A stretch of DNA of 63,747 nucleotides, counting the filler, from Klebsormidium nitens (lineage: Eukaryota > Plantae > Klebsormidiophyceae), in assembly GCA_000708835.1 (NCBI GenBank). It is 6 parts of 6 records of this genome, joined end to end, with 100 filler letters (N's around TTAATTAATTAA, not from the genome) between each part and the next. Parts side by side here need not be neighbours in the genome. Positions count along the whole stretch, not along the records: positions 1 to 15,384 come from DF238017.1; 5 more parts are not named here. The stretch is one strand, 5' to 3'. The notes beneath the pieces were generated by a model. It was not told where the DNA came from and ran no database searches. It saw nothing but the letters and a program-made list of their open reading frames with translations. Shown piece after piece: positions 1-42,949 of the stretch; the first letter of the stretch is position 1, and the number at the start of each line of letters is the position of its first letter. Both the position numbers and the translations under genes were made by a program.

Positions 1-1
1 C

Positions 2-829
2 TCGGACTTCGGGTTCGGGGGATCCCTCCACCTCGCCGGTAGCCCCCCCTTCCACGTGGCAGGATCATTAACCGAGGCGGAAGCTACCCAGTCCAGCACA
101 GCGCGAGAGATGATTGGATTCCTAAGAATCCTTCAACAAGCCGTGCTTCTCCACCGCCCCCTCCTCTCCGGGGCAGCAGTTTTGTTGGTTGGCGATAACC
201 AGGGCGCGGTGGCCGCCGTTAACAGTATGCGCAGCGCGGCGCCGGACGTCCACGCCGTCCTCCAGGAAATCTTTACGCTCTGCTCAGAGGTAGATTTCGA
301 CGTACTCGCCCAATGGAAACCGCGGGCGGAGCTGGCTGTACAAGATGCGCTCAGCCGAGTTCCGGACGCTTCGGACTGGGGCCTTGCCCCGGCAGTCTTG
401 CAAGCTGCCTTCTCACTCTTCGGGCGGCCTGACGTGGACCTTTTTGCGTCCGACACGTGGCACGTGGCAGAGAGGTTCGTGACCCCTCGCTATATGCCAG
501 GCTGCTTTGCAGTCGACGCCCTCCGCATAGACTGGAGGACCCTTGTAGACAGAAACGAAACGGCGTGGATCTTCCCACCGGTTAGGGCATTGCCCAGTGT
601 AATTCAGTCCCTGCGTAACTTCAGGACTGACGTGATTCTGGTGGTACCAGAGGCGAACACCACCAATTGGTGGCTAGAGCTGATGCACCTAGGCAGCGAG
701 GCGACTGTGGCAGGTCCGTTAGAGATTGAGCGGTCTACAAACGCATGCATCCCAAGCAGGCGGGTGCCTGCCGGGACCGTGAACCCCGCTCTGTACAAGC
801 TTAGAGTATTCAAGATTAACTGGAAATAG
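2..829 (+). CDS. DIRS-type pol C-terminus: RNase H plus DAM-like methyltransferase (MT) domain; 5' end outside the window
   Basis: Frame is open from base 2 (SDFGFGG, RNase H first-Asp context). SSTARE, DNQGAVAAVN and QWKPRAELAVQDALSR match DIRS RNase H; DWGL..VDLFAS..AWIFPP..VILVVP..NWW matches the DIRS MT domain. Confidence 0.9.
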   Translation, partial: SDFGFGGSLHLAGSPPFHVAGSLTEAEATQSSTAREMIGFLRILQQAVLLHRPLLSGAAVLLVGDNQGAVAAVNSMRSAAPDVHAVLQEIFTLCSEVDFDVLAQWKPRAELAVQDALSRVPDASDWGLAPAVLQAAFSLFGRPDVDLFASDTWHVAERFVTPRYMPGCFAVDALRIDWRTLVDRNETAWIFPPVRALPSVIQSLRNFRTDVILVVPEANTTNWWLELMHLGSEATVAGPLEIERSTNACIPSRRVPAGTVNPALYKLRVFKINWK

Positions 830-1079
830 GAGGCGTAGGTAACAGCAAGGTACGCAGAAAGATGATGCAGGCGGCAGTCAAAGTTAGCCCTGTAAAGTGA
901 AAGTTGTCTTTAAGCTCTCATTGAGCGCTACGCACATGAAACATTCAGAGTGAACGCAAGTCGCAATTCGTCACGTTATTCAGCCAATGGCATATGCGTC
1001 AGGACATATCATTTGTTGTATTGAATCTTTGACGGCTGTGCATCGAATCGCTGCAACAAATTTGGAGTCGAATCAGTCT

Positions 1080-2219
1080 TTATTTGCGCCACACTTCCTC
1101 TACGTATAGTCGGAAGGCGGAATAAGATTTCCAACGGCCTAACTCCATCAACTCCTTAATGTTGTAGTTCAGGTTTACCGCGGCGTGCTGAACAGCGGAC
1201 CGACGGAAACTGTGCACGGTTTCACCTTCGAACAACCCCGCTTCTTTAAGCCGCCTCTGCAGCCTTTTCCTAAGTGTATCACTGCTCATCGGCTCATTAA
1301 CGAAGCCGGTCCGGCTTCTGTTCATGGCCCGGAACAGGAACCCTTCTTCGCCAACCGCATGCCCAGCTTCTACCATTCCGAGGAGCAGCGCCTCAGCAGC
1401 CTCCACGAAGGTCAGCCGATCCTGCGAGTCCGGCGCCGCAAGCGGAATCCGCGCACTCGGCTCCTGCCGGACTGTCTTACTCCAACCCGGGTAGGCCGCC
1501 TGCTCCTCTAACTCCACTTGCCGTCGTTGCAGCTGCCCACACTCCTTCCCGCGCGCAAGTGTCTCCCAGAGGTACAAGACAGCCGCTTGGTCGGACAGCA
1601 GCACGCACCGTTCCAGGCCCGGTGAACTTTCTCGGAGAAGCCGCGCTAGATGCGCTAGCAAAGCGTCCAGCTTCACCTCGGTGAAGACTTTCGCCCGCTG
1701 AACTCTCACCCCCTGCTCGTGCAACAATTTTTCGTAACCCACACGAAAGGATTTCACCACCTCCGCTTTCGCAGGATTGTTCCGCCCTTCGTAGCCGAGG
1801 AGAGAGTAGGACTTCGACAGGTCCTTGACCACGTGGGTTACCGCGGAAGCTGACGGAACGGTTTTTCCTGTCCCTGGCAGCTTGGTCCGGCACCCGGCAC
1901 TATGGCTGGGGATCCAGTCCCCCATAACAAACGCTCCCACATCCGCAGAAGTAGCGGTCTCGACCGTGACGCCGAAGGCATTACGAGCGAGGAACTCCTG
2001 GTACTGCTGAAAAGTCCGTTTCCGACTACTGTTGCTCGCTTCGTTAACACTCTTCTCCGCGATCTTTCCGAAGCTATTGAGAGCCCCCTCATAAAACCGC
2101 TGCGTCTCCCCCGCACTCATTCTCTCACTTGCTGTGCAGCTCCCACCCAAGCCCACCCCACGGATGGCGCGCAACTGCGCCTCGCACTTCCGCTGGAACT
2201 CCTCCCTGCAAAACACCAC
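1080..2219 (-). CDS. Tyrosine recombinase of the DIRS-like element, convergent with pol
   Basis: 379-aa intronless ORF with LARGKE (catalytic R), WSKT (K), HSFRR (HxxR) and GRWKSYSAFRLY (W, Y). Confidence 0.9.
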   Translation of the reverse strand: MVFCREEFQRKCEAQLRAIRGVGLGGSCTASERMSAGETQRFYEGALNSFGKIAEKSVNEASNSSRKRTFQQYQEFLARNAFGVTVETATSADVGAFVMGDWIPSHSAGCRTKLPGTGKTVPSASAVTHVVKDLSKSYSLLGYEGRNNPAKAEVVKSFRVGYEKLLHEQGVRVQRAKVFTEVKLDALLAHLARLLRESSPGLERCVLLSDQAAVLYLWETLARGKECGQLQRRQVELEEQAAYPGWSKTVRQEPSARIPLAAPDSQDRLTFVEAAEALLLGMVEAGHAVGEEGFLFRAMNRSRTGFVNEPMSSDTLRKRLQRRLKEAGLFEGETVHSFRRSAVQHAAVNLNYNIKELMELGRWKSYSAFRLYVEEVWRK

Positions 2220-2274
2220 TGAACACTGTTATTTCCAATAATTGTCGTTTGGGCAAACGATTGTCTTTTTGGGG

Positions 2275-3256
2275 CGGCGTCTTCGGCACTTCGGAGGCGC
2301 TTTGCAGCCGTCCGGGCGCCCCCCAACACCCCTATCGGAAGGTTGACATTGAATGGGACTGACATCTCTAACCTTATGATTGGTCAGAAAAGTGTTCTTA
2401 TGATTTTAGTCATCGGAATGCTCGCGCGTCGAGCGATGAACAGCCAGCGGCCGCAGTTCCGTTGGATTACGCAGGAAATTTAAGCGCGGAATGCGTCACC
2501 CCGCATCATAGCTGTGCGCATGACCGGGGTTTAGACCACCGCGGCCGCCTGACCGCACGCACCGCGCGCGGCCGCAAGAAGACGCGCTGGCGACCGCGGG
2601 CAGCCCTCACCGACAGGGAGACGTCTTGTTCAAGTAAAGAAGACGTCCTCCTTGCTTTCGAACATTACAGAGAGAGCGCCAGTGGCGCCTCCTAGCTAAC
2701 TCTACGCTTCTTTCGAGAAGCTTCGCTTCGACCCTTCCCACCCACCCTGGAAAACAATTTAAAAGCTTAATCACTTACCTCTCCTCTGCTTCCTCTGCCA
2801 GCCGGCCCAGCTCTGCTAATGCAGCCTCCATGAGTCAACCGCCACTGCGCCTGCTGTACTCCACGTTCCTGAGCGTTACCAAGGCAGTGACGTCTAACTT
2901 ATTTGATTCTCCTTATCGCCTGCGGCGGCCCATCGACGCGCGCGCCCATCCCCCCAAACCCCGACGCCTCCCGACCGTCGATTTCGACACCGCGAATGTC
3001 AACACCACTAAATGTCAACCTTCGGTCCGCGGCGACCCCCGGCGCCCAATTCCACGCACCCGGTCGCCGTACTGTCCCGGACGCTCATACGCTGTCCTCT
3101 GGTGCCCCTATGCCTTACCCGGCGTCTTCGGCACTTCAGAGGCGCTTTGCAGCCGTCCGGGCGCCCCCCAACACCCCTATCGGAAGGTTGACATTGAATG
3201 GGACTGACATCTCTAACCTTATGATTGGTCAGAAAAGTGTTCTTATGATTTTAGTC
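2275..3256 (+). repeat. 137-bp direct repeat pair at 2275-2411 and 3120-3256 (1 mismatch), candidate split-direct-repeat B1/B2
   Basis: Direct alignment CGGCGTCTTCGGCACTTC...TGATTTTAGTC, offset 845 bp. Confidence 0.95.
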
Positions 3257-4834
3257 TTCATGTCCGATAGACTCCCGTCTTCTCCAGAGCCACCAGGGGA
3301 TAGGCCAGGCCCAAGCTGCAACCCTGTACTGACTTGCAGGTTCGTGCCCCTTCTTCAACATTGCCAGTTAATTTAAACTCCAGAGTTTCGACGGAAGCTT
3401 AGGTTGAGGGCGGTTTTTGTGAACCAAGTCTGCAGGTTCAAGCTCAGCTGCAAAAGCGTTCTTTACAAACGCCAATCAAAATTGACTTGTCATGTTGAGT
3501 GGCGCCTTACGCATTGTAGCCTAGCTGCAATGGCGCGCTGCGTCAGCCTGCTAACGCCTTGCGCTAAGTGCGCCAGCTGTTGGTGGCTTGAACGAATCAC
3601 TGGGTGGTTGCACCACATTGCACGGCGCAGCTGGCAGCTGCAAGAAGTGGTGCTGCTTGGCGTTTTTCAGCTGCTGTTTGAGCTGGTAGTGCAAGTTGGC
3701 GCTGGCAAGAGCTGGCGCCGGCCGGCAGCAGGTGACTTTGTTTCAGGGGTAGATGCTGAGCTGGCGGCGGCAGGAGCTGGCGCGGTGGTGGCATGGCATG
3801 GCCGCCTCAAGTCACCATGTTTGCCATGTGGCTAATATCCACCTCAGCTTGGAAGCTCCAAGAACCATCTTCAGAAACAGAGAGGTGCTTAGTCCTGCAT
3901 AGAAGCATCTTCAAGGGGCAGAGCATGCAAGAAGAGCAGCAAGGAAAAAACGTCTAGTTGTCTTGACACGGGGGGCAGAGACGCACAAGCACAATAAGAG
4001 CGGCACGCTCCTGTCAGCGATTGGTAAGTACCAATTTTCTCTCCAATGCCTGTGCTGTCACCATGTCAATCGTTTTTGATATGCTCTGCATGCTCTGCTT
4101 TTCTGGTCAAGAGAAGGATCACGGCACATGCAAGACAAGTGCCGGGGTCTGGCGCCAGTGGCGTTGCTCTATTGTGCGCTTGCTTTTGGACTGATTGGGA
4201 TCTTGCTGGGGCTGAGGCCCGCTGTCTCATTGAGATGGTGCTCTATGTTAGAGCTGCTTTGCAGCCGATTGTCGGGCTGACGCCACTGCTGTTGTTGATT
4301 GTGCGCATGCTTTGGGGCTGATTGGGGCTTGCCAAGGAGCCGTTTTTGGACCTTGCTAGGGCTGAGGCCCCCTGTCTCGTACAAGGTTGTGCTCTCTGTT
4401 GGAGTTGCTTCGCAACCTTGCTTGCTATGGGCCTATTAATAGGTGCTTGCCATGGGCTTAATTTGTCGCGCGCTGTTGGGTGGACTTGGGGCCCGCTGTG
4501 GAGCTGCTTTCAGACCCTCTGTCAAGCTGGCGTTTTGCTCAGTCTGGGGCTGAATTGGCAAGTGCTATGAGGCTGATTTGTCGTGCTGTTTCGAGCTGAC
4601 TTGGGGTTCGCTGTGGGGCTTCTTTCGGGCTCGGCGCTGTCGGACTGACGTGTTGCTTGCAGTGGGGCTGATCTGTTGCTTTGTTGGGCTGATTGGTGCC
4701 TCCTGTGGGCTGCTTTCAGGCCGCTGATCCAGGGCCTACTGAAAACAAGCCAAAATCTTTTTCCATGTTTCAAGGTCCATGCTCACAGTGCCACGTGAGC
4801 ACTGACTCGATCTCCGCGCCTTGAATTGCAGACG

Positions 4835-7800
4835 ATGGAACAGTATGAGCCTTCAAGCCCGGCCTACTCTTGCCAAGGAGCATCCAAGGAAGGGACGACC
4901 AAGCGACCGGCAAACAAGAAGCGTCGGCGCAACAACGTGAGGGATCCACAGCTCCACGACACAGCTACCTCCAACGGCGGGCCCAGTCTTGAAGAGATGC
5001 AGGTGAGTACAGCTCTAGCCTCGCCCGGTTGCTCAGATATGCTTTCGATATCTCATGATTGTAGACAATTTTGTGCATGCTTTGAAATGGAGATGTGACA
5101 ATCTGCTGTGCGCCAAGTGGTGTGGCATGGTAGCTTGGTTCTTGCGCACTTGGATGTGTCCAAAACTGGCAGCTTTCTCGCACTTGATCAGCCGTCAAGA
5201 TTGTTTTAAAAAGTCACCCCATGTTGCTGAAGCTTTGATACCTCGGACGCTCAGCAGCAAACAACCGATGCATGTACATCTCTCATCTCTTCCAGGTCAA
5301 TGAAACCCAAGCTAGGGAAGTGCTCAAAGCACGGCCCGAACTCTTGGAAGCGATGCCACAGGATGACCAGGGTGGAGGGGAGATTGACAGCGCCCCTGAT
5401 GCGGTAAGACTGGATGCATTGAAGCCATTTTTCCAAACCTGATTGGCAAACAGGGCACCAACTCGAGCGCCTTGTCTGTCGTCAGCTGCGTCTCTTGCTT
5501 GGCTTAAGGTGGACAAAAACCAACAGCAAATTGGTTCTATTCCCTTCTCATTAAGCCCCCTTCCCAGCAGACAAGGCGAACAGCAAAGACTAGTGGAACT
5601 TCTACTGTAGCTGGCCGGCTACTGCTGCCCTCCTCTGGTAGACACTTTAGACAGAGATACGCGTCTCTTCTGTTGTCATTCCTCATTTTATGCTCTCCCT
5701 CTCCAGGCAAAAAGTGCCTCTGTAGAAGAAGGACCCTGCTCGCTTAAGCTTTGGCCTGATGCAAGCGCGCACACTGCATATCATCATATGGACGAGGCAG
5801 AGGGCAGCGCTGCCGATGGTGTGCAGCCGATGCTGACCCCCGTGAGGATCAAAGTGAGAACAACATCTTGAAAGCCCGATTCTCCCTTAGTAACAGCAGA
5901 CAGGATGAACGGCAGAGACACGTGGTTTGCTATCGCCGCCCCAAGCCTCACGCACTCTGCTGTCTGTGCTCGGGCTAACGGGAAGGACAGGAAAGACAGG
6001 TCTTTCTCATGTCGAGATTCACAATTTCGTGCTCTCTCTTTGCAGGTGACAGGCAGTTCTAAGGAGAAAGGGGGTGGGTCGCCTGGTGCAAGCGCGCACA
6101 TGGAAGGTCGCGTGCACGCTGTGGAAGGTGGCGCCGCCGATGGTGCACAAACAAGCGGGGTAAGTCTTGACGAAACACCGGTCAAACGACCCAACTCTTA
6201 TGCACCCCTTGCGCTTGGGACTCTTCCTGAAGGAGCAACAAACAGGACGGACAGCAGAGACACGTGTGTCTTCTATCGTTGCCCATGTTCTCAAGCATGT
6301 CGCCGTCTGTGCTTTGATGGACAGGACGGACAGCAAAGACACTTTTCCTTCCTGTCGCCGTTCATACTTGTGTGCACTTGGCCGTCTGTGCTCTGGCAGG
6401 CAGGTAGAAGAGACAGCAAGGACCGCAAAGCAACGTGATCCTCCTGTCCTTGTTCATGACTCGCTCCTTTCCCCCTGCAGGTGGCATGCGTTTCTGCAAA
6501 AGAAGGGGGTGATTTGCCTGGTGCAAATGCGTGCATGGAAGAGAATGCCGGAGCTAGCGATGCGGAGTCGCAAGCGGACTCGTCCTGCAACCCGGGGGCC
6601 GGGGGGAGCTCCGAGCCGGCGTCTCCTTTCGAGGAACCGGACCTGGCGGACCCCGAGCTTCGGTCGGAGGTGGTGCGCGAGCTCGAGAAGCTGCTGTCGA
6701 CCTGGGGCGACAACACCTCGATCTTCTGCGCCGCCAAGCCGTCCTCCACGGGCCCTGGGGCCGTCTACGAATTCTGGATCGCGCCTGGCGGCCGCGTGAC
6801 GTGCCCCTACTTTCCGGCATCTCGCGCGAGGGTGCACGACAGCACCAACTTCGGGCTTCTGCGGCGGGGGTTCGAGGTGACGTACATCTGCCACGGAGAG
6901 AGCTGCAAGGCCACCCCGCGGTCGGGCAACTTTCGCCTGGGCGTCCTCATTCTGCCAATTGCCGCGGCCTTTGGCGACAGCCAGCCCTTGAACAGTGAGA
7001 GGGACCACCTGTACTCCGACCGGCAGCTGCTGCCGCTGCCCTTCCTTCGAGAGAATCTGAACGTCAAGAAAGGTGAGTCGAATGGTTATCAATCAGTGCT
7101 CACTGTTTCTCGTGAAGGCGTGACTGGAAGTCACGCCTATGAAGCTCTTAAGTTACAGCTTGCAATACTACCCCTTTCTTTGAGAATGCTGTGGTAGGCC
7201 AGGCCTACGGTTGCTACCTACAATCGCATTCTAGGTTTCTACTCTTTGCTCGCTTAACTCGAGCATACTTGCAGATGTCATTTTGCCCTTTGATAACGTG
7301 ATAACTTCTAGGAAGCACTTCTTGTTTGTATTTGTGCACATGAGATTTCTGTATCTCTCTGGACTTGGATAGCAATAGTTGCTGCCAAGCTACAACTGGT
7401 CACTCCCTAAGGCTCCTTTTCAGTGATTCTCGCACGTTTCTGTTCTTCAGTCTGACAGCAATAGTAGCTCTCGAGCTATGATTGGTCCCTACAACTGCTT
7501 TTTAGCTACAAATCTCGCACTTTGTGCGTGCCCTTTACTTCTGCAAAGCTGTTGGCGAGGGTATGTAGTGCTTCTTCCTCAAACAGAGAGTTCTTTGTAC
7601 CTGCAGGAGACGTTGGTGGCGCCATCATCCTGGAGCGCCTCTACGTGCGGACGGGCCTGAAGTTTGCCTTCACCTCCTCGGGCTCGTTCTATTGGTCCGG
7701 TCGCTGCTGGGCCAAGGACGAGAGCGGCGGCCGGATCCTGCGGGTGCTCCGCGAGGAGCTCTCCAAGATCGAGGCCGCGTACATGCAAGAAGCAGAACAG

Positions 7801-10313
7801 GGGGAGGGAGAAGGGCGTTCGATCGTCATGGCCGACGGACCGGCAGGCGATGAAGACAGCGGGTTGGGCGCGAAGGGAGGCCCTCCAATCAGGTCGAAGC
7901 CGGCGGGTGGCGGGAAGCAGTCCAAGCCGGAGAAGGAGGAGAGGCTGATCAACATCAATTTCAATGCAAAGATGTCCAATATCCTGGGCACGTGCAAGGA
8001 ATACTTCTATCAGCCCGGCTTCCAGTCCCTCCTGGACGTGCAGAAGGACTTTCTGGCTGTGGCGAACGGCGTCATCGACTTGCGGACTGGCGAGCTGCTC
8101 CCGCATTACCCCCGAGTGAGTGATGATTTCGTGCTCGCGCAAAGATGCAGATCAGGCTAGGGACTTCATCGAGAAGTTTGGATCATGGAGGCATTGGCCA
8201 GATCCACCGGCCAGCCGGTAGACCTCCTTATTCAATCGACTAGCACTAGGCCGAACCCTTTCAAAGGCTCTGGCGACTCTCCTAGCCCTTGCTCCCCAAG
8301 GGTTGCTTTTGTTGTGAAGCCCTCGGCAGATGAGATTGCCGTTTGTGCCGTCTTTGCTGTCCGACATTCTCATGGGTCTGCAATTTGCACTGCAGTTCAT
8401 GAACAGCCGGGTGATCGACTGGCCGTACCCTTGCGCTGGGTTGTCATTTCCGAGGGGCGACATGGTACGGTTCTTGGAGGACATCATGCACGCCTCCGGA
8501 GAGGATGGGCCGGCCGCTCTGGAGCACCTCCAGGTACTGCTGGGGTACGGGCTGACTGGTCATACAAGCAATCAGGTAGGTGCTCCTTTCAAGTGCTTCA
8601 TGGACTTGATGTATTCACGGGCTCCTTGAAACTTCAACAGCCCAACAATCGCATGAGGTCTTTGGCCATTAGCACGGGATCCTCATTGACCAATTGCTAT
8701 AAGACCAAATGCTGTGAGACTACGTTGTGAAGGATTGCGAATCTTTGGCCCATCGACTGCCACCCATTTATGCGAAGGTCTCGGCGCTTCCCCCGTTTTG
8801 TGGTGAAGGTCACAACAGAGGACTCTCGTGGAAGGTGGCCCTCCACATCTGCAGCCCTGTGAAGTCTTTTCCTCAAAATACTTCTCAGGTACTGCCGATC
8901 TTTGTTGGCGAGGGGAGTGCAGGCAAGAGCGTTTTCCTCGCCCTGCTGCGCAAGCTCCTCGGCGCCGCCTTCAAGAATGTCGGCAAGGAGATTCTGGTGA
9001 ACTCAAAGGGGCAGCGAGCCGCCCACAAGGGGGCCGCTTCGCCGCTCGAAGCGGGTGAGACTCCACCAGAACGTCCTCTTTCTCCAAAAGTCAAATATGA
9101 TGCTGCATCTCATTCGGTTAGGGATGCATGACAGTTTGTCTGATGGCAAATTATCGTGTTGGTCTTGTCGATCCTGTCTGATCGTCCTGCAAACTACAAT
9201 GTCCTGACTCAGCATTTTACCTCATCGAATATTGTCGGAAATGCAATGATCAGTCCGCCAGCAGATTCTCGTGTCCGTCCTTTCGATCCTGTCTTCTGGG
9301 CTATCCAATCTGTGTGTTTTTATCGGAACATCTTTGCTTTTTGTGCAGGGCTTGCTGGAGCGCTACTAGCGGTGGTCGAAGAGACCGACAGATCCGATAC
9401 GCTTAACGAGGCCGCTATGAAAAAGCTCACCGGCAGCGATGTCATCACCGCTCGGCCTTTGTTTCGGGACTATGTTACCTTCACCGCAACCGTTCTGGTG
9501 AGGCCAATGTATGTTCGTCCGCAATCTATTGCACAGCATGGATTGCGATCGAACTCTTGCACTTGAATGAAGATCAGCAGCAGTAGGACTTGATCTCTTG
9601 TCAGCGGCAAGAGGGCTTGATCTCTTGTGGCATGCTCGAAGTTGCTGAAGTGAGCCAACCAAATTCTGATTGCGCCTTCTTCGCCCCATTTGCAGCTCAT
9701 CATCTGCACGAACTACCTCCCGAGGACGGACAAGACCTGGTCCGTTGCCCTCCGGCGCCGCCTCCAGCTGGTTTGCTTCGTGCGGCGCTACTTCTCGCCC
9801 CACGAGAAGGGGTACGATCCGGCCAACCCGTTGCACGGGCTGGTGGACACGCGACTCCTCACCAAGCTGAGCACCTTGCAGAACATGCAGGAGTTGCTCG
9901 CATGGCTGGTTGCAGGAGCGGTGAAGTGGTACCAGAACGGACAGCAGCTGTACCCCATGCCGAAGCGGAGCATGGACGCCCTGCAGGACTACGAAGAGGC
10001 GGCGGACGATTTCGACAACTTCGTCCTCAACAGCTGCGTCAAGGGCGATGACCTCTTCATCTCGACGAGCGATGCCCTCAAGGTGTACAACGACCCGCAG
10101 AGGATGGTGGGCGGCAAGTGCGTCGGCCATATTCCCTCGCTTGACACCAAGTCGCTGAAGTCGGCAATGAACAACCACGGCTTCTCGGGTCCGGACAAGC
10201 CCAGCAAACTTGGCCTTGGTGTAAAGTATTGCGGCGTAACGGAGCGAGGATATAAGGGTCTTGCGCTGAAAGCCCTAGAGGTTAAGACGGAACAGGAGGA
10301 GAGGAACCATTGA
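4835..10313 (+). CDS. Spliced D5-like SF3 helicase, about 912 aa: low-complexity N-terminus, UL52/PrimPol-type Zn finger, D5_N, SF3 helicase
   Basis: Exons 4835-5002, 5296-5403, 5707-5841, 6046-6159, 6481-7072, 7607-8115, 8396-8575, 8889-9054, 9349-9497, 9696-10313 (2739 nt, GT-AG, phases consistent). Motifs: LAVANGVIDLRTGELLPH (D5_N), LQVLLGYGLTG, Walker A GEGSAGKS, Walker B AVVEE, KKLTGSDVITARPLF, motif C IICTNYLP, Arg finger ALRRRL. The first four exons are less certain. Confidence 0.85.
5890..6430 (+). repeat. Degenerate ~80-bp intronic repeats containing GTCTGTGCT...GGACAGGACGGACAGCA(A/G)AGACAC
   Basis: Copies near 5960-6000, 6240-6270, 6303-6345 and 6381-6430, in introns 3 and 4 of the D5 gene. 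Confidence 0.7.
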
Positions 10314-10399: not shown

Positions 10400-10690
10400 A
10401 TCTTTCCCGGTATGGCCTTACATACATACATATTGGCAATTGGATCCCACAAGGAAAACCTCGTACTACTAATCTGTCATATTCTCTTCTCCAAAAAGTC
10501 CATTACAACATTGCATCTTTTCCGGTATAGCCTTACATACATACATATCATCAATCCAGAACCAAAGGGAAAAGTTTGTACTACTAATCTGTTATAATTC
10601 CTTCCCTGGAGAAGAAAGAAATTATAACGGATTATAGTATAAACTTTTCGGATCTCGGCCGAGGTTGCTAATATGTATGTATCTAAGGTT
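10400..10690. repeat. AT-rich ~80-bp unit: two direct copies (10400-10480, 10515-10598) plus one inverted copy (10621-10688) forming a hairpin
   Basis: CCTTACATACATACATAT...GTACTACTAATCTG repeats at an offset of 115 bp. 10621-10688 (ATTATAACGGATTATAGTATAAACTTTTC...ATATGTATGTATCTAAGG) is the imperfect reverse complement of 10531-10598, with a 22-nt loop. Confidence 0.85.
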
Positions 10691-10769
10691 GGGCCGCCAC
10701 TCTCACATGTCGGCCGGCTTGGTTGTAGCGTACGAGGAATCGTACGACTAAAGCATAAAACGGCTGGAC

Positions 10770-11285
10770 ACGTGTATCTTCTGTCCATCCTGTCCTCCTT
10801 TCAATTCGTTTAATAAAGATTCACAATGTTCAAACAATCTCGGTGGTCCAGTCAAGTGCAAGCCGGACTTGGACACGAGCATTTCCTGTCCGTCCTGTCC
10901 TCCTGTCGACTCGCTCCATGAATTACAATATTCCACTCAGATTAGGTGGTATGGTCAAGTGGGACCCGGACTTAATTGGACACGAGCATCTCATGTCCGT
11001 CCTGTCCTCCTGTCGACTCGCTCCGTGAGTCACAATATTCAACTCATATTAGGTGGTATGGTCAAGTGGGAGCCGAACCTGGACCCGAGCATTTCCCGTT
11101 CGACCTGTCATCCTATTGACTCGCTCCATCAATTACAATTTTTGCAACATATCAGGTGGCATGGACGGTCAAGTGAAAGTCGGCCCCGGACTCGGGCACA
11201 AAGATCACCCGGTCCGTCCCGTCCTCTTGTCGACTCGCTTCATCAATTACAATGTTCGCAACATATGAGGTGGTATGGTTAAGTA
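10770..11285. repeat. Tandem repeat, ~103-114-bp unit, about 5 copies
   Basis: (A/C)GGTGG(T/C) anchor at 10841, 10944, 11051, 11154 and 11268; units carry GTCCGTCCTGTCCTCCTGTCGACTCGCTCC or variants. Confidence 0.9.
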
Positions 11286-11296
11286 TAAGGTGACCT

Positions 11297-11905
11297 TTGG
11301 CCACACCATGGAAACGGTGTATTCCTTTTTTCTTGGTGCACCGTAGAAACCTTGACTTGAATGGACGCAATTTTGGGCTATCGTCCTCCAACCACTTTTG
11401 CAATCGAGCTGTTTTGGAGAGTGGAAAGACCGCAATAGTGAGATCTTACAGAGAGTTTGGGATGCTTGAAACCATTCTTGATCCAGCAGCCCTTGCAGGA
11501 ATCCGCGCTCTTGCAGAACCATTCAACTTGCGTCATATTACCAGAGCGCTCGTGCGATCTCTGAATGCTGAAGGATTTCACTCATATTGGGATCGAAGCG
11601 GCATCCACGGCCCATTTGCTGTCAAGGTCAGTTGGCGGGTTGCTCTCAAGAACGCATCTCGCGCTCAACGTCAAGCAAAGAAGCTACACTCAAAGGAATC
11701 CCGATTAAAAAACATGTCGCATGAACGAGAGTCAATCCTTCCAACCGCTTGCACAGACATCCGTGCCCGTTCTCCATTGAGTGCCCAATATGCCCCTAGC
11801 ATGGTGTGGAGTGATGCGCCAATCTTGGAATTAGAGGCGCTTGCAAACCCCAACAAGGTTTGCCATGCCACCGAATCTTCACGGGATGCCTCTCCTAGAT
11901 ACTGA
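11297..11905 (+). CDS. Hypothetical protein (first ATG at 11462)
   Basis: Only a 202-codon open frame between the repeats and the recombinase; no recognisable motif. Confidence 0.3.
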   Translation: MATPWKRCIPFFLVHRRNLDLNGRNFGLSSSNHFCNRAVLESGKTAIVRSYREFGMLETILDPAALAGIRALAEPFNLRHITRALVRSLNAEGFHSYWDRSGIHGPFAVKVSWRVALKNASRAQRQAKKLHSKESRLKNMSHERESILPTACTDIRARSPLSAQYAPSMVWSDAPILELEALANPNKVCHATESSRDASPRY

Positions 11906-12164: not shown

Positions 12165-13217
12165 ATGGCAGCTTCAGATGCAAACACAAAGGTTATAGCA
12201 ACTTTGTCGTTAGCAGAACGGCTGCTTCACGAAATCTTTGATGACTCGACACGAAAGCCGCACACGGTCGAGCAGTACTGTGCACGAGTGATGCGCCTCT
12301 TCAAGAGGATGCATGCTCCAAGAGAGGACTTCGAGTCACTTGAGTGGGTCCGAGATACGACCCGTATCATTGAGTTCCTTGATAGCGTATATTCCAATAA
12401 ACTACCGACCCAAGCAACGAGCATCAGCCCTCTCCTTGTTATTGCTCGGAAACTATGGCCCAGTGATCAACAGACCTACGAGGCACTTTTCAAGAGATTC
12501 ACTTCGGTGAGAAAGGCCATGGAAGAAGCTCGACCACCCCAGCACATGTCGGAACGAGAAGCCAAGAATTGGAGATCGCTAGATGATATTAATCAACGGC
12601 GCGTCGAGCTTCAACGGAGGGTCAATCGATCTATTGCGCCAAAGAAACCAGAAGAGGTCACGGTTGGGGACAAAGTGACGCTCTGCCGCTACCTCGTGCT
12701 CTGTTTGTACACACAAATGCCGGCGATCCGTAATGATTGGAGCAATCTTCCCATTGTGCGCTTCGAAGAGGTTGGGAGCACTGCCGCGCGTGAGCTCATG
12801 GCGGGATCTCGCAACTACCTCCTGGAGTATGCAAAGGGCAGCTATAGGCTCCACCTGAAGTCCTACAAAACCGACAAGAAGCACGGACCGCAAATTCTCG
12901 ACATACCGGTCCGGCTTTGCAACGTGATTGCGGAAAGTCTTGATATTTTTCCGCGAAAGTACCTGCTCAGCCGAATGAGGACACCGGACGCTCCAATGGG
13001 GTCCGGCTACTTGACCAAGTTTCTGGCGGCAATTTACCCCGATTCAAATTTGGGATCGTGCCTCCTGCGAAAGATCACTGTCAGCAACGCGATGAAGGAT
13101 GCGCCATCCCTTCAGGACAGAGACCAGCTTGCCAGGTCAATGTTGCACACGGCTCCAGTAGCAATGCGCCATTACGAACTCAAGTACAGACCCGATGGAA
13201 CTCGGATCCAATTCTAG
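12165..13217 (+). CDS. Tyrosine recombinase/integrase of the PLV/virophage (OLV11-like) type
   Basis: Intronless 350-aa ORF: LCLYTQMPAIRND (R), NYL..YRLHLKSYKTDKKHG (K), SCLLRKITVS (R), LARSMLHT (H), MRHYELK (Y). Confidence 0.85.
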   Translation: MAASDANTKVIATLSLAERLLHEIFDDSTRKPHTVEQYCARVMRLFKRMHAPREDFESLEWVRDTTRIIEFLDSVYSNKLPTQATSISPLLVIARKLWPSDQQTYEALFKRFTSVRKAMEEARPPQHMSEREAKNWRSLDDINQRRVELQRRVNRSIAPKKPEEVTVGDKVTLCRYLVLCLYTQMPAIRNDWSNLPIVRFEEVGSTAARELMAGSRNYLLEYAKGSYRLHLKSYKTDKKHGPQILDIPVRLCNVIAESLDIFPRKYLLSRMRTPDAPMGSGYLTKFLAAIYPDSNLGSCLLRKITVSNAMKDAPSLQDRDQLARSMLHTAPVAMRHYELKYRPDGTRIQF

Positions 13218-13257: not shown

Positions 13258-13593
13258 TCAGGAGACTTCGATACTTGTGAACGCACCTAAAGGGACGGTG
13301 GGGGCTTTGAATTCGCCTCCCATGTCCGAGGGGACAGCCGTCCGGGGCACATCATACCCGGCGTCTATCAAGCGTCGAATTGTGGCTTTGTGGAGCTTTC
13401 TTGTGGTTCCAGTAAGCAAGCGTTTGTATGCTTTTTGCATGAGGATGTTCTCCCGATGTCGGCCATAGTATCTTCGAACGGTCTGCGCGTGTTCCACATG
13501 GTGTTCTTTTTGGTAAGCGCGACTCGTCTCACAAACGCGGCAATGACATGGATAAGTGTCGGTGTCGATCAAAGGACTTGTGATTTGGACCAT
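13258..13593 (-). CDS. Small basic hypothetical protein with CxCxxC motif
   Basis: ATG-initiated 111-aa ORF that fills the space between the recombinase and Prim-Pol genes; CHCRVC, then VRRYYGRHRENILMQKAYKRL. Confidence 0.55.
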   Translation of the reverse strand: MVQITSPLIDTDTYPCHCRVCETSRAYQKEHHVEHAQTVRRYYGRHRENILMQKAYKRLLTGTTRKLHKATIRRLIDAGYDVPRTAVPSDMGGEFKAPTVPLGAFTSIEVS

Positions 13594-13699: not shown

Positions 13700-15384
13700 A
13701 TGGCTACGTCGGATGTTGAACGGGCAAACGCCTCTCGATCCCAGGGGAAGGCTCAGACAGCCAGAGACCCCAAGGCCCTAGGACCCGTCAGCATCAGGAA
13801 CGAGATCCAACGACTCTGTAACAACGGCTTATACGCACTACCAGTGTCCGTCTCTTGGGATCGGAATAAAGGGTCGAAGCATGCTGACTTTCCTGACAAG
13901 TATGCACATATCAAAGAGACAGAGGCATGGGGGCGGTCCATCAATCAAGCGATGAAGGAAAAGCGGGATGCAAACGGGCTTGCAATACTCGCGGGAGTCA
14001 GTGGAGTGTATGTGCTAGATATTGATGTGGCTGCAAAAGGGGGAAAGCGACCAGGGACAGAGCTCTGGCAGCAACTTGTTGAGATCCACGGGGACTCACC
14101 GGAGACACTGAAAGCAAGGACCGGCTCTGGTGGGTTGTATATGTACTTCAAGCTCGACTCTCCAGGTCTCACGTGGAGACGGAATATTCAAGGTCTCAAG
14201 GTCGACGACAAAACTTTTGGCGTTGATGGAAGAGGAATTGGTGGTGTTGTGTTCGCTTCACCAACAAGCTACTTGAATGCTGACGGCGAGCTTGCAACAT
14301 ATGAGTGGCTCAGTGATGGGCCTCCTAGCACCGACGCGTGCCAAGATATGCCCATTTGGCTTGCAGAAATGATCAACAATCGTGCCGGTCATACTAGTGC
14401 GGCGACAAGCGGAGAGGAGCAGGGTGGCAAGGTTTTGGGAGCAAGCATTGATGCGTCCATGCCAGGACGTGTGGAAAGTCCAAGCTTCGAGCAAGATCGC
14501 TCGAGCCCAAGTTTGGAACCGCCACACTGCAGGGAGCTCTTGCTGGCAGAACTCTCAAAATTGCTATTAGAGAAGGCCGGCGATTCAACAAGCACGTACG
14601 CATGGTCGTTACCACACGGCCTGTACGGGACATACTATTGCTACCGGACGCATGGGCCTCGAAGGTGCTTCTTTGGCCATACGCACTCGGGGAGCAACAA
14701 CTTCAATCTGCTCAAGAGGGGACGGCATGTATACTACCGCTGCCATGGAGACGAGTGCTCGCACAAGCCCGCCAAAAAGTTAGGGGTCTTGGAGAACTTG
14801 AAGGCCGCCTTGCAAGATGCTACCGCAGATCCCGTGGATCCTCACGACGACATGCGAGTTGTCACTCAGTACACAAGGGAGACGCGAGATGTGCAGGATT
14901 TGCTGCTCAAGATCGTGATTGAGCACGCCGCTCCTCAAGCGTACGCCAATCTCGGGCGCCTCTTTGCATATATGTACATGATCGAGGGTCGAATTTTGGT
15001 GACCACGAACGAAGCAGAAAGGAGTCGAGATCAGCTCTTTTTTGTCTGGGACGGGACTTCGTGGGTACAAGACACCTCGAATCTGGTTTCGAGCGTCTTT
15101 ACATGTCAAATGGGTTGTCTCTTAACATGGTATGAGAGGCAGAGAGAGAGGTGCTTGGGCACTTTGTACGCCAGCCGCCCCGAATTAGAAGGATTTGTGG
15201 TTGACGGTGTTCTCAAGCCTCTCGACTCCGAACAAGTCAATCCCAAGCAGATGAGGAAGATCAAGATGGCTATGGAGACGTGCGCAAAGGAGCTTGATAA
15301 GATCATGCCAAGTTTTGGAAGGATCAACGTCCAAGATGTTGCTGATGTACGCAAGTGCTTGCACTCTGCTGTTAGAGAGCTGCA
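13700..15384 (+). CDS. Bifunctional primase-polymerase (Prim-Pol) plus UL52-type Zn finger plus start of a D5_N-like domain; truncated by a gap
   Basis: Intronless, more than 560 aa. GLAILAGVSGVYVLDIDV (DxD), TGSGGLYMYF, GVDGRGIGGVVFASPTSY; Zn finger RCFFGHTHSGSNNF..VYYRCHGDEC; FFVWDGTSWVQD. Confidence 0.85.
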
Positions 15385-15484
15385 NNNNNNNNNNNNNNNN
15401 NNNNNNNNNNNNNNNNNNNNNNNNNNNNTTAATTAATTAANNNNNNNNNNNNNNNNNNNNNNNNNNNNNNNNNNNNNNNNNNNN
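15385..15484. other. Artificial assembly gap with TTAATTAATTAA linker
   Basis: 44 N + linker + 44 N; identical gaps at 26276-26375, 47226-47325, 59351-59450 and 61991-62090. Confidence 0.98.
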
Positions 15485-19200: not shown

Positions 19201-22200
19201 CTTCTCGGGAGGGCCACTGGGGGGGGACCTCCGGATGGGAGTGGCACTTTGACGGGTCCAAAACGACCGGGTCGATTCCCCGGGAGAAGGTGACGTCATC
19301 GGGGGAGGGGGTGACGTGAGGAAGGGCCTTGATCTTGGTGAACGAGTTGACGTGGCCGTAGTAGAACAGGAACGGGTGGCGCATGCTGATTGGCTGCACG
19401 GACCAGTCCTTCACCTGGGCGAGGAGCGCAGAACAGGGCTTGTGAGGAGATTGGCAAAGGTTGGTCAATGTTCTGAGCAACCTAAAGCCAGGGGTACCAA
19501 ACCCCACTCGAACTGCCGGAACCATGTTTCGCGCCATCCGATGATGAAAAACTTTGAATTCAACGGTTTAGATTGCTTTGGGGAGTGTCCCGAGCGCTGT
19601 GTGGACCCCGGTTGGCTTGTAAATTGGGTTTAGCGGTTAGCTATCAAGTAGTTATAGCAATTTTACCTGGTTAACCCTCCTTAATCAGCACAGAATAGCT
19701 CCTAAACCTCTTGTTGCCCCAACGCAAAATTCAAGGGTTACAAACAAGACCCTTGGAAGGTTTGATTCCACCAATTTCCGGGTTGGGGCAATTAGAGGTT
19801 TGGCTGCTAGCACAGGGTTCAGAGTGCAAACCTAATTATCTGGGGTGTTTGGTCCCCCTGCCTAAAGCACCAAGAATTTGTGCAACAACTCATAATTCCC
19901 TGGCTCCTACGGACCGGAAACCCTCACAGAATTCAAGGACAACTGTGCTGCAACCACGAAAATGGAGAAAGCATGCGAAGTTTGAAGAGCAGGGCCTGCG
20001 ATAGCTGGCCAATGCTTCGGGACCCCAAAACGGGGATCCCTAGACGACACCACAAAAGATAGTTTGCGGGATCCCGCATATGACGTGCGGTAAAGTACGA
20101 TGAATACAAACGGCTCAAACCGACGGCCATCCTCTGTTGAGCAAAGCGGCGAAGTAGACATGTGTCGCAAGGAGTGCCCCAACCCCATCATACCTCACAA
20201 ACCCAGTCCCATTACGTCAACTTCAAAGCGCGCTCAGCTCGCAAAGACGCGACTGGCAAAGCGCCCAGAATTGGAAATCAAGCGCTTAACCCTCACCTGC
20301 TTCAGGAAGAAGTCGTCCGTGTCTTGCCAGCACCGCCGCAGCGCCTCTTGCATGGGCAGCAGCATTTGCACGCCGTATTGGCGCGTGCGCCACGCTGCTT
20401 GGACGTAGTAGCCCGACACGCTGGCCAGCCGGTTGATGTCCCCGACAGTGAACTTGCGGGACAGCTCCATCAGGAGCCGTTCCCCGGGGGCGATCCGGAT
20501 CGCTTCGCCATTCTTGCCGGGGAAAACCTCCAGCCTGAAGTAAGGACGGGGCGAATACTGCTTAAGTACGATTCGAAACAGGTGTTCTAGATAAGGATGC
20601 ATTGGGGTGTTTGACACATTTAGCAGTTGACAGTAGGACGGATCTGAACACGATAAAGTCCCATGAGTTTTGGCTGAAGAGCGGATGTTCCGTGTTCCGG
20701 TACGGCAAAGTAACGTTCTTGCAAAGCGGGTAATGGACGGAGTAGAACCTGTAACCGTTGTGCCAGAGTGTCCGCCGCATGGTAGCAACGTTCATACAAA
20801 ATTCCGACTGGGCTCGTGCATAACTCCGTCGCGCCCGTTTTGCCACAGTTTCAACAAGGTAAGAGGCCGTTAGCCCACACAGCCTGTCTCTGGCAGAGAA
20901 ACAAGAGAGCACAATGTAAACTGGGTCCGAAATGGCGCCTCACCCTTCTTTGAACTGCACCCACATCTCGACGCGCCGCATCTTGGCCGAGACGACGACC
21001 TCGTAGACCCAGTTCTTCATTGCGGCGTCCAGGCGCTCGGGGGCGAGCCCCAGGCTGAGCAGGGCGTTGCGAAGGCCGTTTAGAATGAACTCCTCGGTCA
21101 CGCCGCGGCTGTCGTGGTACGCTGCGTGGAGGACCTTCTTGTCCTTCCACAGGTCCGTGCAGAGAAACACCTGCAAATAGTAGTCGGCGTAGGGGTTCGA
21201 CCGCCATCAATGACGAAGCAGACAGTGTCATAGATGTAAAATTCGTGTGGACAGAGGCGTCCGAAGTGTCCGACAGCAACTATGAATGCCTTCAGGAAGG
21301 ATGTGCGTCTCTAAGAACCCCCTTTTCACAACGAAAGCCCACTTCGGAACGGGAAATTGTAGGTCTCAATCATTTTGAAGAAATAAAGCGTTGTTTTTTA
21401 CCACTTGGGACACCACGGTAATCTGCTGAGCTCCCTCGATAACAATCGACAAACACTTCTCAGAGAAATGATTCGTATGCAAGCTGCAATGAGCTAACTA
21501 GTGCTGCAGAGAACGTCAGGCATTGACCTGCATTCAAAAATCTTAGAAAGTTCACGAAAGATTGGTTTGTCAGAGGCTCACAGGTCGACTTGAAATATGT
21601 GAGAGGCTTAGAAGTGAAGGCAACACCTTGGCAGAAAGGGCTGTGGATCAGTGGCAATGGGCGCAAAAGACGTAACCTCTAGCAGCATGGACCCAAGCAG
21701 TAAAACAGCCTGTTTGGCAAAAGATCGATGCAAAGAAGATCAGGGACAGACTTGAGAACAGTATGAAGCATTCCTGCTACTTAGACGAGTCGTAACGTTC
21801 AAACCGTGGCGTCTGTCCATCCCTGCAACTCCATCTTACAGTAGAGGTTTTTTAGGTGGTAAACCACGCACCCACGATCTTCTTTCCATTGTCTTTGGTC
21901 CTTCGCTCCTCCCTCTACCCATGAACTCCTTCCGCGTCTCCAGAAGACAAGACCAGTTCTCTTGAAATTCTTAACGCCTCACTCCCCTAGTATGTCTTAC
22001 GACGTTACGTAACGACCCACTCGTCCCGGACCACTCTTACCACCAAAGCTCTGAGCCAGAATATGCGTAAGTATGCCAGACTGCTTGCTAAAACGTGGCG
22101 TGCAAAATCTACCAGACTTTCCATGAACAAGAGACTGTCAGAATGCTGCCTAGACCCGCGCAGGTTACGAAACCACATTCTTCGAGGATAGGACACCCAC

Positions 22201-24517
22201 AATCTACAAGAATAAGCAAAAATTCGCACCTGGCTCTTCTGGCCCGCTGCCACGAGCATGTCCTTGAAGAACTGCGCGGCGCCGTCGTTGGTCAAATTGC
22301 CCACGGACGAGCCCAGCCACATGATACACAGGTTCTCCGTTGGGTGGAGTTGTCGAACTTTCTGGAGCCCAGTTATGTACTCCGCTTCCACCAAGTCGAT
22401 GTCTTCGGCCTTCAGTCCAGTCACCAAGCTCATCAGGTTCGTTTTGGCCTCTTCCAGGAAGGAGGCGGAGACGTCGATGCCCGCAAATTTGCTGGCACCG
22501 TCTCTGCAAAGGGTAAAAAGCATTGGGGGCTTTTTCTTACTTGGTGGAGTAAAACTGAGGCGATCAAATTGGGCCTGTATGCTGACAGGATTGAAGGTGG
22601 TACGTCAGGACATGGTTATACTTTGTTCCAAGGTGCAAAGTTGGATTATCTGGGGGCATTGTTGTGATCAACTTGTCAGCAGAGCTAAGACTTGGGAGGG
22701 CTTGTATACTAGGGTAAGAAGCCCAAGTGACTAACATAAATAAGAGAGTGTCACGACAGAAGACAATTGTGGGTTGTCGTGAACCAGTGCTAGATGGAAA
22801 TGATACCAGGAACAAGGAGACTGCATGGAAAGCCTTTGTAATGCGACCAGCTCACCAAGACCCGAGAAGCTGACCCTAGAAGGCTCGGGCTGAAGCAAAA
22901 AGCCGTTCATGAGGAGAAAACGAGACTTGGGACAACTTGAAATTTTGGGTAGGCACATCAAGTAGCCTCCTCTGCCTACCTATTGCAACATTTCACAAGA
23001 TGGGCGGAGGCTTTTGAGACTTCAGGCCACAGATTGCATCCCAGTGCCTAGGAGCCCAGTGCCATTTTCAGTACAGTGGAAGGAAGGTAAAGCCAGTGCA
23101 GTAGGAGAGATGGGACATATCTGTCCCGCTTAGGCCACAAATTTTATTCACCTACAAGCTGGGCGAAGGTGCGCTGAATTAACCCCATTGCTGGCAAAGT
23201 TGCCTTTTAACAACATTGACCAAGGCTGGTTCCAAACTACCATTTCCCAAATACCCAGATACCACCAGTGCATCATTGCGCCCTTATACTCAGGCGCCCA
23301 CATCAGAGATGCGTAAGGAGACCCCAAACTGACCGTGGGTGCTGTCTCACATCAGCACATTTCAGGGTAAGATGTGTCGCATGCATGGGAGGGAGCTTTC
23401 TGACGCTCCCCCACGTTCCAAAGACCTCAAACAAGCAGTATGCATGCAGACCTTGACTCCAGCTACTCTGACACATGAGCGTGAATCTTTCACCAGTCAG
23501 CAAAATTTTGGGAGTGCCCAAAGGCCTTGAAGTTTAAACGCTTCCACTTCAGGAAGTTACCAGACATCTAAACGTGCTTAAGCACTCCCCTTCACCTCAA
23601 GCACTCCCCTGACGGACCTAGAAGTAGCAGTCGGTCCAGCGGCACTTGGCAAAGATGAACAAACCCTCAAAACAAGGGTGTGTTGAAAAGTCCACAATTT
23701 AAGGTCCCCATTAGCTGAGCTCTCCCTCATCTCAAAGCGCAAGAAACAGGAAGGATAAACATTAAGATTGCATAGTGCGCTCAACAAAACCTCCAAAGGC
23801 GCCACCTCACCTCTTGATCAGAGCTGACAGCAGCAGTCCCGTCTTCCTCGCGGTACCGCAGCCCAGTTCGACGATGACCGACCCCTTCGGGACGTGACTC
23901 ACGATGTCATCTGCATTCTTTTCCAGTATCGCTTGCTCAGCCCTAAATGGATAGTACTCCTCGAGCTCCGTTATCTGCTCATAGAGCTCGCTGCCCTTCT
24001 TGTCGTACAAATAGCTACAGGGAACGGTCTTTGGGCTGCCCCTCAGACCGGCCAACAGGCCCTGCGGACAGATGGTCGGCATTGTGGGCGTGTGGAGGTG
24101 ACAAGACAAGCAATGCTGGGGTTTAGAGGAGGCTGGGTTTCCGTACAGCAGAAAAGCTGGACTCGGCGCTGGAGACTAGACGTGATGGCAAAAAGTTGTG
24201 TCTCTTTGTGGGCTAGAGGAAGATGTGCCAAATGGTGGCAAAAGCAGAGGAAAATGCACTCTCCAGAGCAGGAGAGGGAACACCACGTCGTAGCGCAAGA
24301 GGCGTTGGAATGAACACCCAATGTGGCGGGATGGGCAGCAGAAAACAGGCGGTCGCACGCGGTACGTGGTGGCACTTCCAGCTGAAACGCAGCTGGCACT
24401 GCGAAACTGGGAAGTGAAGCCTACCCTGTTGAGGTCCCTCGTTGCACCTTTTCGAAAAGGTCCAAAGTAGGTGACAAAAGCTGGCTTTATGGTGCCTCTG
24501 TGAGGCTCCTTCCGCAT
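16298..24517 (-). CDS. egt1: Egt1-type ergothioneine biosynthesis fusion (EgtD histidine methyltransferase + EgtB-like sulfoxide synthase), about 742 aa
   Basis: Exons 24517-24425, 24061-23811, 22503-22230, 21170-20944, 20534-20297, 19414-18941, 18474-18308, 17814-17694, 17248-17085, 16517-16298 (2229 nt, phases consistent). EgtD motifs PKTVPCSYLYDKKGSELYEQITELEEYY, VELGCG, WLGSSVGN, ELSRKF. DinB_2 motifs RHPFLFYYGH, RGIDP and metal-binding EHERMHQETL. FGE domain WDNEGP, WEWT, YPEYSTDFFD, RDSFRNYYQ..YPY. The true start may lie further upstream. Confidence 0.92.
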
Positions 24518-26275: not shown

Positions 26276-26529
26276 NNNNNNNNNNNNNNNNNNNNNNNNN
26301 NNNNNNNNNNNNNNNNNNNTTAATTAATTAANNNNNNNNNNNNNNNNNNNNNNNNNNNNNNNNNNNNNNNNNNNNATGACGGCTATCCGTCAGCAGAATG
26401 AGCAAATGCGCGAGCTGGCCGTCGCTGAAGTGCAGGCACATGCGGACGCTAAAGCGATCCGGTCTCTGACTGTCGGAGCGCCTCGCAGAGGCTCGGGGCG
26501 GCAACTAGGGTACTGAACGTGAGCAATGT

Positions 26530-26905
26530 TTTTGAGAAAAAACAATGTTTATTCAACAATTTGTGATGAATTGGATATATTCGCTATTGTTTTTGATACG
26601 AGCTCAGTTAGAGCTCTCCAAAAACATACTTGGTTTTGAGATTGACCCCCCCTGGAAATAAATAAACATGAATAAACATGTTTAAAACTTCAAAACGTGT
26701 TTGTACATATGATCGGGCAAAGCCACGTTTTTTTGAGCCCGATAAACATAATACCTAAACAAACATGTTTTTGGTTTAAAACACGGTTTAAACACGTTTT
26801 TTTGGTATAAAACATGTTCTTCTTGTTTAAATGGCATTGTTTATAAACTAGTAAAAGCCACGATATATTCAGACTCTCAGCCGATCATATGTACGTTTAA
26901 AACAT
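26530..26905. repeat. AT-rich cluster of AAACA(T/C)GTTT-like palindromic motifs
   Basis: Many copies, for example TAAACATGTTTAAAAC, AAACGTGTTT, AAACATGTTTTT, AAACACGTTTT, AAAACATGTT, in a local AT peak. Confidence 0.75.
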
Positions 26906-42286: not shown

Positions 42287-42680
42287 GTGGGTAACTTGTT
42301 TTACAATCTGTTCAGCATTGTTGGATTTGAGCTTGACTGATTTTAGCAAAGTGGTGGGATCTTAGGAACCGATATCCTTTGAAGGTTTGAAGATTGTCCG
42401 CCTCACTTCGGTTTTCGTTTTGAAAGCAGCGCATCTATGCCACCAAGCGCTGACAGCAACGCTGTCTATGTAGAGGCGCCATCTACTACAGTTTTGTCTC
42501 CATGGACAGCGCAGCCAGCGCGGACAGTGCTTTCAGGATCTTCTGAATTTTTTGCTTTCTTTTCGCTGACAGCCCACCGAGCACGGACAGCAGCGCTGTC
42601 TATGTAGAGGCGCCATCTACTACAGTTTTGTCTCCATAGACAGCGCGGACGGCGCGGACAGTGCTTTCAAGATCTTCTGA
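40186..42680. repeat. Dispersed hairpin repeat family GCTGTCCATGGAGAC-N(~20-25)-GTCTCCATGGACAGC, at least 7 copies in both orientations
   Basis: Copies near 40203-40256, 40938-41010, 41078-41147, 41631-41700, 41782-41858, 42444-42548 and 42585-42680. Confidence 0.85.
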
Positions 42681-42949
42681 AAGCTCCAACGGAAAAAAAA
42701 GAGTCTTGCAAAAGCAACGGCTCACCGGGACGCTTTTCGCAAGGACGGTATCCCCACTGTCTCTTTGTGCCGCTATCAATGTGTATGGCGGACTTGAGTC
42801 CAGAACGCGCCAGAACAAAGCGCATTGAGCTTTGTTGAATTCCAGGGAGCCCCGCAGCTGGGCGGGTCTTAGCCCAGAACGCATCAAAGGAGGGCGGATT
42901 GAGCCCAGGCTAGTCCGGAAAGCCCTTGTGCGAAGTGGGCGGGACCTCA

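Follow-up and report, generated by a model that had tools for sequence, protein, structure and literature searches.

A two-box repeat array with an inverted last pair between a spliced D5-like helicase gene and a virus-type recombinase gene in Klebsormidium nitens: a candidate replication origin

Introduction

Virus-derived inserts are already known from Klebsormidium (PMC5294986 and PMC11244446, both available in part), and for most polinton-like elements the replication strategy is unknown according to the excerpted text of bioRxiv 10.64898/2026.07.28.741278. In the window analysed here, by which we mean the whole stretch of 63,747 nt of K. nitens DNA, a long inverted repeat lies directly downstream of the stop codon of a D5-like helicase gene. 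A first-pass annotation took it for an origin-like, AT-rich dyad, with a recombination site or terminus of the neighbouring tyrosine recombinase (YR) as the alternative. This raises the question of whether the dyad serves as a replication origin and to which element it would belong. In SaPIs, iterons follow directly after rep, face each other across an AT-rich centre and serve as binding sites for the winged helix of the helicase; origins of the SaPI/P4 type consist of six to twelve short penta- or hexanucleotide iterons (PMC9371898, available part).

The inverted repeat and its units

The inverted repeat is real. Its arms (10531-10603 and 10616-10688) are identical at 57 of 74 aligned columns and enclose a 12-nt loop (10604-10615). 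The first-pass annotation had ended the arms at 10598 and 10621 (10531-10598/10621-10688, 53 of 69 aligned columns identical) with a loop of 22 nt, but pairing continues to 10603/10616. The dyad gave an E value of 7.7e-19 in a self-blastn comparison, and the single-stranded fold of 10515-10700 has -33.3 kcal/mol with DNA parameters (z -6.48), a value equalled by none of 200 shuffles. The direct copy noted 115 bp upstream could be confirmed (10400-10489 versus 10515-10604, 78% identity at a spacing of 115 bp), as could a start within 90 bp of the helicase stop at 10313, unit A beginning 87 bp 3' of it. Units of 115 bp, each with two boxes, form an array whose last pair is inverted, and this pair makes up the dyad (Table 1); self-blastn detected no further copies of the unit elsewhere in the window.

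Table 1. Features around the dyad, with positions along the window
Feature	Position	Strand	Evidence or remark
D5-like (SF3) helicase, last six exons: Zn-finger-like motif, D5_N, ATPase, predicted RFX/P4-type winged helix	6481..10313	+	Splice joints, Pfam, fold search
Unit A of 115-bp repeat: outer CATA-repeat box, variable middle, inner AT box, tail	10400..10514	+	Repeat comparison
Unit B	10515..10605	+	Contains left dyad arm
AT-rich inner dyad	10569..10649		31/35 columns symmetric; surrounds the 12-nt loop
Unit C, inverted	10606..10700	-	Contains right dyad arm; centre colinear in P0056 and P0057
Five tandem units of ~105 bp, second repeat type	10765..11295	+	Repeat comparison; adjoins the dyad in the contig of P0056 too
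ORF of unknown family	11297..11905	+	Paralogous contig in run X5 covers 11502-11877
Tyrosine recombinase (YR), virus type, intronless, multi-copy	12165..13217	+	27 homologs; fold and Atlas neighbours
Small ORF	13258..13593	-	Weak endonuclease-family match phrog_2340, E 0.004 (lead only)
Prim-Pol primase-polymerase/D5 helicase gene, intronless, cut by assembly gap	13700..15384	+	Pfam Prim-Pol

The description as AT-rich holds for the inner dyad (81 bp), with 72% AT compared to 47% in the whole window, where windows of 100 nt with at least 69% AT make up 0.19%. It does not hold for the loop, with 42% AT (55% in the 22-nt version). The AT-richness sits in the arms, not in the centre, and the dyad is no AT-centred palindrome. 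Palindromes of the herpes oriS type have an AT-rich centre between binding boxes, so that the likeness to oriS that had been drawn fails. A 12-mer at 10422 and 10537 occurs inverted at 10671, and opposed copies thus flank the AT-rich central part. A separate set of short iterons was absent among the 8-12-mers scanned; the three long boxes hold internal CATA repeats. A scan for promoters and terminators remained empty.

In pairwise comparisons of units A, B and C, the outer box is identical at 21-22 of 24 and the inner box at 26-31 of 35 positions, whereas the 15-column middle between them retains only 4-7 of 15 identities, near chance, in all three pairs. Both boxes are kept in unit A too, although this unit has no pairing partner of its own. 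Clustering of the variable sites in a permutation scan gave p values of 0.003 for 15, 0.006 for 20 and 0.08 for 10 columns; for the longest invariant run, p was also 0.08. Since translations of other loci retain the B-type and the C-type middle each, the boxes appear to have outlasted an old divergence. From the conservation of both boxes at a constant distance, whether the copy is direct or inverted, we infer a pattern like that of protein-binding sites.

The five tandem units of the second repeat type had been overlooked in the first-pass annotation. Overall, a descent of the 115- and 105-bp units from one ancestor is unsupported, as 347 of 1000 shuffles scored equally well; the two share a short tail block only.

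Flanking genes

Five GT..AG introns, whose splice joints were observed in contigs, connect the exons of the upstream helicase to an open frame of 737 aa; K. nitens GAQ92605 ends in the identical 737 aa. Further exons lie upstream of 6481, where contig cover begins at 3389. The frame includes Walker A/B, motif C and the arginine finger. A primase domain is absent from it (Pfam: D5_N and DUF5906 only; PHROG: none). The C-terminus is predicted to fold into a winged helix like that of the P4 origin-binding domain (OBD): of 48161 chains, a fold search placed RFX5, RFX-DBD and P4 OBD on top, with Z values (6.5, 6.4 and 5.3) below 8 and a structure model of mean pLDDT 61, and Foldseek returned no match at E<=0.001. 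At 10292-10313, the helicase of the window is six codons longer than its close paralogs, whose reading frames end with EVKME or EVKTE.

Downstream of the dyad, a YR and a primase-helicase gene are present as a set. The YR fold is similar to Cre/XerA (E 2e-4), its closest viral folds being giant-virus and virophage proteins, and its Atlas neighbours are viral as well; features and folds taken together, it is nearest to proteins of Preplasmiviricota, giant viruses and virophages. In the alignment, the YR of the window shows the residues expected of the family, Arg, Lys, Arg, His and Tyr, but the first His of the HxxR motif is replaced. To four full-length proteins with Prim-Pol + D5_N, the Prim-Pol ORF has an identity of 42-60%. 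As the spliced helicase reaches only 25-27% identity to the same four proteins, it and the Prim-Pol/D5 protein are, judged by sequence, members of two different helicase families. The ORF between array and YR had no Pfam, PHROG or Atlas match.

Among the 57 ORFs scanned we saw no gene for a capsid protein or a packaging ATPase, the element being cut by the gap at 15385. Related loci were found neither by a scan of metagenome, viral and prokaryote contigs with the YR alignment, nor of viral and prokaryote contigs with the Prim-Pol alignment, nor of metagenome and viral contigs with patterns of the 115-bp unit.

Other copies of the dyad and its neighbours

Other copies of the dyad were judged via translations, contig depth and contig pairing rather than by DNA alignment. 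An antisense ORF (10477-10788) spans the dyad and matched three proteins among 1.84 billion representatives. Two of these are real, while the third (P0058) shows a chance similarity to a Cys-rich repeat protein and was dropped. P0056 aligns gap-free over spacer, arm C, loop and inner B, with 53 of 64 aa identical (83%), and its start reads as a 105-type unit. P0057 aligns gap-free over inner C, loop and arm B (25/34 aa, 74%) and continues into what reads as the tail of B. The dyad centre together with both flanks thus likely recurs on two other contigs, of 8000 and 11126 nt. In length, neither of the two coincides with any contig known to carry a YR, a helicase or Prim-Pol (0/2).

Contigs of equal size, taken as one contig, place a paralog of the spliced helicase and a YR together in 3 of 11 cases. 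One of these is a diverged pair from ENA, at 72% and 81% identity. For Prim-Pol/D5, a YR was placed alongside in one of four cases. The set of 11 helicases excludes the protein of the window itself, four fragments of 50-53 aa and the P0039 cluster, which is distant. Three of those included are on NCBI scaffolds with only one YR listed, and P0042 and P0045 may represent one locus.

In run X1, contig depth, which is not a copy number, was ~106 for the helicase, ~583 for the YR, ~320 for Prim-Pol, 3156 for the bin of the array and 2125 at position 10564, compared to ~15-18 for identical single-copy contigs. The YR thus has about five times the depth of the helicase, the step from helicase to YR level is located in the bin of the array, and the peak is on the array. 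In X3, which together with X1 represents one sample, perhaps the source of the window, the array bin was at 2.2 and position 10564 at 1.5 times the YR depth. Altogether, the depth of the unit amounts to 1.5-5.4 times that of the YR and 11-30 times that of the helicase. Since it exceeds both, many units may lie outside elements.

Had the dyad been confined to this copy of the D5 gene, the proposal of an origin would have lost its basis. However, contigs in X5 (RNA-like) and X3 (DNA) contain a joint 10291->10409 that links the helicase end of a paralog to the unit. Ahead of 10409, 11 contigs in each of X1 and X3 depart from the window with letters resembling the tail of a preceding unit. One joint leads from a 105-type to a 115-type unit. 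At the dyad centre there was no loose end among the 24 of 397 listed and no joint among the 15 of 104 listed; the biggest pile was at 10409. X5 is an RNA run by guess, and X16 is listed as DNA yet shows spliced joints. Both are without cover of 10670-11099, the YR and Prim-Pol, which we did not use as evidence.

From translations, contig pairing and contig depth, a link of helicase and YR and a recurrence of the dyad at other loci are inferred. On the same grounds, the array likely marks the left end region of an element carrying YR and Prim-Pol/D5, to which the spliced helicase is likely attached in a minority of copies. The dyad is quite probably part of this element and not an independent insertion.

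Discussion

We tentatively propose that the dyad is the replication origin of a multi-copy, virus-derived YR + Prim-Pol/D5 element, a proposal built on analogy to which we give somewhat less than even chances, yet better ones than to any other reading. By analogy to SaPI and P4, the outer CATA-repeat boxes would be recognised by the winged helix at the C-terminus of a D5/SF3 helicase; either the spliced helicase upstream or the downstream Prim-Pol fusion could play this part. With the outer boxes pointing inward from both sides, two hexamers might load around the inner dyad and then melt it. After excision of a circle by the YR, Prim-Pol would prime synthesis on it, and the additional direct units would supply more binding sites. 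Against an origin speak the low AT content of the loop and the units themselves, which are ~75-bp two-box repeats and not iterons of 5-6 bp. The depth of the unit above that of the YR, the similar arrays in introns of the window, the lack of a length match for the contigs of the two other dyad copies and the low Z values of the winged helix count against it as well.

The comparison with SaPIs, already made in the first-pass annotation, stands in part. As in SaPI/P4 origins (PMC9371898, available part), the repeats lie just 3' of a helicase ORF with opposed boxes around an AT-rich centre, the Klebsormidium helicase has a predicted C-terminal winged helix (Z 5.3 to P4 OBD), and a primase and a YR are close by. 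In contrast to the systems treated there, the locus is eukaryotic nuclear DNA, its ~75-bp two-box units recur with a period of 115 bp instead of forming iterons of 5-6 nt, the adjacent helicase is spliced and primase-less with a second primase-helicase gene downstream, and the origin role is putative. Moreover, the depth of the unit is far above that of the helicase; it is nearer to that of YR and Prim-Pol but still above.

Alternatively, the array could be a neutral minisatellite with an old fold-back inversion, which was copied along with the element and has no role of its own. We regard this as rather unlikely, although several observations fit: the depth of the unit is well over that of the YR; the arrays vary, as indicated by the loose ends at 10409 in X1 and X3 and the joint of 105-type to 115-type units; arrays of similar size are found in introns, including that of a UL9-like gene, and the 105-type motif occurs in helicase introns; and the absence of indels at 74-83% translated identity is explicable by simple descent. 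What a neutral repeat does not lead one to expect is the conservation of the boxes around a middle that is near chance identity in all three comparisons, or that B-type and C-type middles are kept at other loci while the boxes outlasted an old divergence. If the repeat is neutral, the locus is a repeat array and nothing more.

It is doubtful that the dyad is a recombination site or terminus for the neighbouring YR, with the centre as the crossover core and the direct units as accessory sites. In a variant of this idea, two elements would abut here with their right and left ends, or the dyad might be the junction of a circle. Cre-type sites have a 13-8-13 layout, and core sites of YRs such as lox and dif consist of inverted arms of 11-13 bp around a spacer of 6-8 bp. 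The centre fits such a geometry, with 13-bp arms (11/13 symmetric) around an asymmetric spacer of 8 nt (10606-10613), but any palindrome with a short loop would satisfy this test. A YR that folds like Cre/XerA is only 1.5 kb from the dyad, the depth step falls at the array, and recombinase genes of polinton-like viruses (PLVs) tend to lie near attachment sites according to the available part of PMC4642659. On the other hand, the centre is intact in two other contigs with the same flanks, and no loose end was found at it among the 24 of 397 listed, the top pile being at 10409. A hairpin-telomere site is unlikely because the centre is an imperfect palindrome.

There is only a slight chance that the structure is a hairpin of the helicase mRNA, located in its 3' UTR and acting in termination or stability or as a source of small RNAs. 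Such a stem would be stable, as far as the fold with DNA parameters tells, and in the RNA-like X5 a paralog contig joins the helicase end to unit A; yet Rfam gave only sub-threshold miRNA-hairpin matches (30.7 bits versus a gathering threshold of 117), the unit greatly outnumbers the helicase gene, and the box conservation of the unpaired unit A is left unexplained. An independent MITE inserted between the helicase and YR genes, for which high unit depth and long inverted arms could be cited, is largely refuted and scarcely credible: no target-site duplication of at least 4 bases exists at the dyad arms or the A-C block, where the same script was positive at a control MITE (26491-26922), and the outer flanks are common to other loci (right in P0056, left in P0057), so that the flanks travel with the dyad and the free MITE considered at the outset does not account for it.

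Returning to the element whose origin the dyad may be, its YR + Prim-Pol/D5 gene pair resembles integrated PLVs and virophages (PMC3671162 for primase-helicases, available part); we do not claim membership, the right end being lost in the gap. PLVs and virophages are marked by a major capsid protein and a packaging ATPase, by a YR or rve integrase along with a primase-helicase or pPolB, and by terminal inverted repeats at a size of 15-30 kb. As in PLVs and virophages with an OLV11-like YR and a primase-SF3 helicase (available parts of PMC4642659 and PMC10120064), YR and primase-helicase occur together, integrated and in multiple copies, and the Klebsormidium YR is near an apparent element end. 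Unlike the elements described there, no capsid or packaging ATPase gene is seen in the 5 kb before the gap, and a spliced second helicase is attached in some Klebsormidium copies. The layout also recalls EBV oriP with its family of repeats and dyad symmetry (excerpts of PMC2654434), where a tandem array likewise stands beside a dyad of related units; with an unrelated unit and no EBNA1-like protein, this is an analogy of layout only. With the giant-virus inserts of Klebsormidium (PMC5294986, available part), the locus shares the genome and the multiple diverged and rearranged virus-derived copies including D5 genes. However, section 3.3 of that paper deals with core-gene contigs and not with the YR/Prim-Pol module or its repeats. 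In the literature covered, we found no account of the element or the dyad, so the element is apparently undescribed so far; such contigs could be among those in Figure S5 of PMC5294986 or in the datasets of PMC10120064.

More speculatively, and with a low probability in our own estimate, Klebsormidium might harbour DNA elements that lack a capsid and replicate themselves, a family that would be the eukaryotic counterpart of the SaPI/P4 satellites. In these, a virus-type YR would excise the element, Prim-Pol/D5 would replicate it from a box-and-dyad origin, and the spliced, primase-less D5 protein would be the initiator or a host-expressed controller binding the same boxes. Apart from this, the locus shows a virus-derived helicase that acquired introns and yet seems to have remained linked to the element. 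With a bounded candidate site of 300 bp, conserved boxes, two cognate helicases and a recombinase adjacent, and a culturable alga, origin recognition by a eukaryotic D5/Prim-Pol element becomes directly testable.

Other repeats and genes of the window

Short copies of the 105-bp motif occur within introns of the spliced helicase (5889-6437 and 9146-9294). Diverged arrays of 105-140-bp units were also found within introns of the window at 59780-60750 and 40180-42690, so that such arrays are common here. The first of these belongs to a likely spliced gene for a UL9-like helicase (59452-61990; Herpes_ori_bp, E 1e-13), a second virus-type replication gene with an intron. Its apparent intron (about 59746-60940) carries a diverged tandem array of ~135 bp; the array at 59700-60940 contains no inverted repeat and has no meaningful similarity to the dyad array. 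The second region, likely introns, is a cluster of 60-130-bp hairpin repeats in both orientations, whose loops bear a short motif resembling the inner box of the 115-bp unit. A perfect inverted repeat of 93 bp (39314-39406/42693-42785) has its copies 3.3 kb apart. The control MITE is a classic AT-rich one, with terminal inverted repeats of ~30 bp and a 6-bp target-site duplication.

At the left end of the window (1-3260) there is a piece of a DIRS-like retroelement. It comprises an ORF for a Dam-type methyltransferase and, on the opposite strand, a tyrosine recombinase (1080-2219); direct repeats of 140 bp are located at 2275 and 3120. Three long ORFs at 51322-56918 (400, 445 and 771 aa) had no Pfam or PHROG match, and an ORF on the minus strand (62267-63100) showed a weak match to the AP2 domain (E 0.003). 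Also on the minus strand, 20234-22523 contains exons of a histidine-specific SAM methyltransferase (Methyltransf_33), which is presumably EgtD-like.
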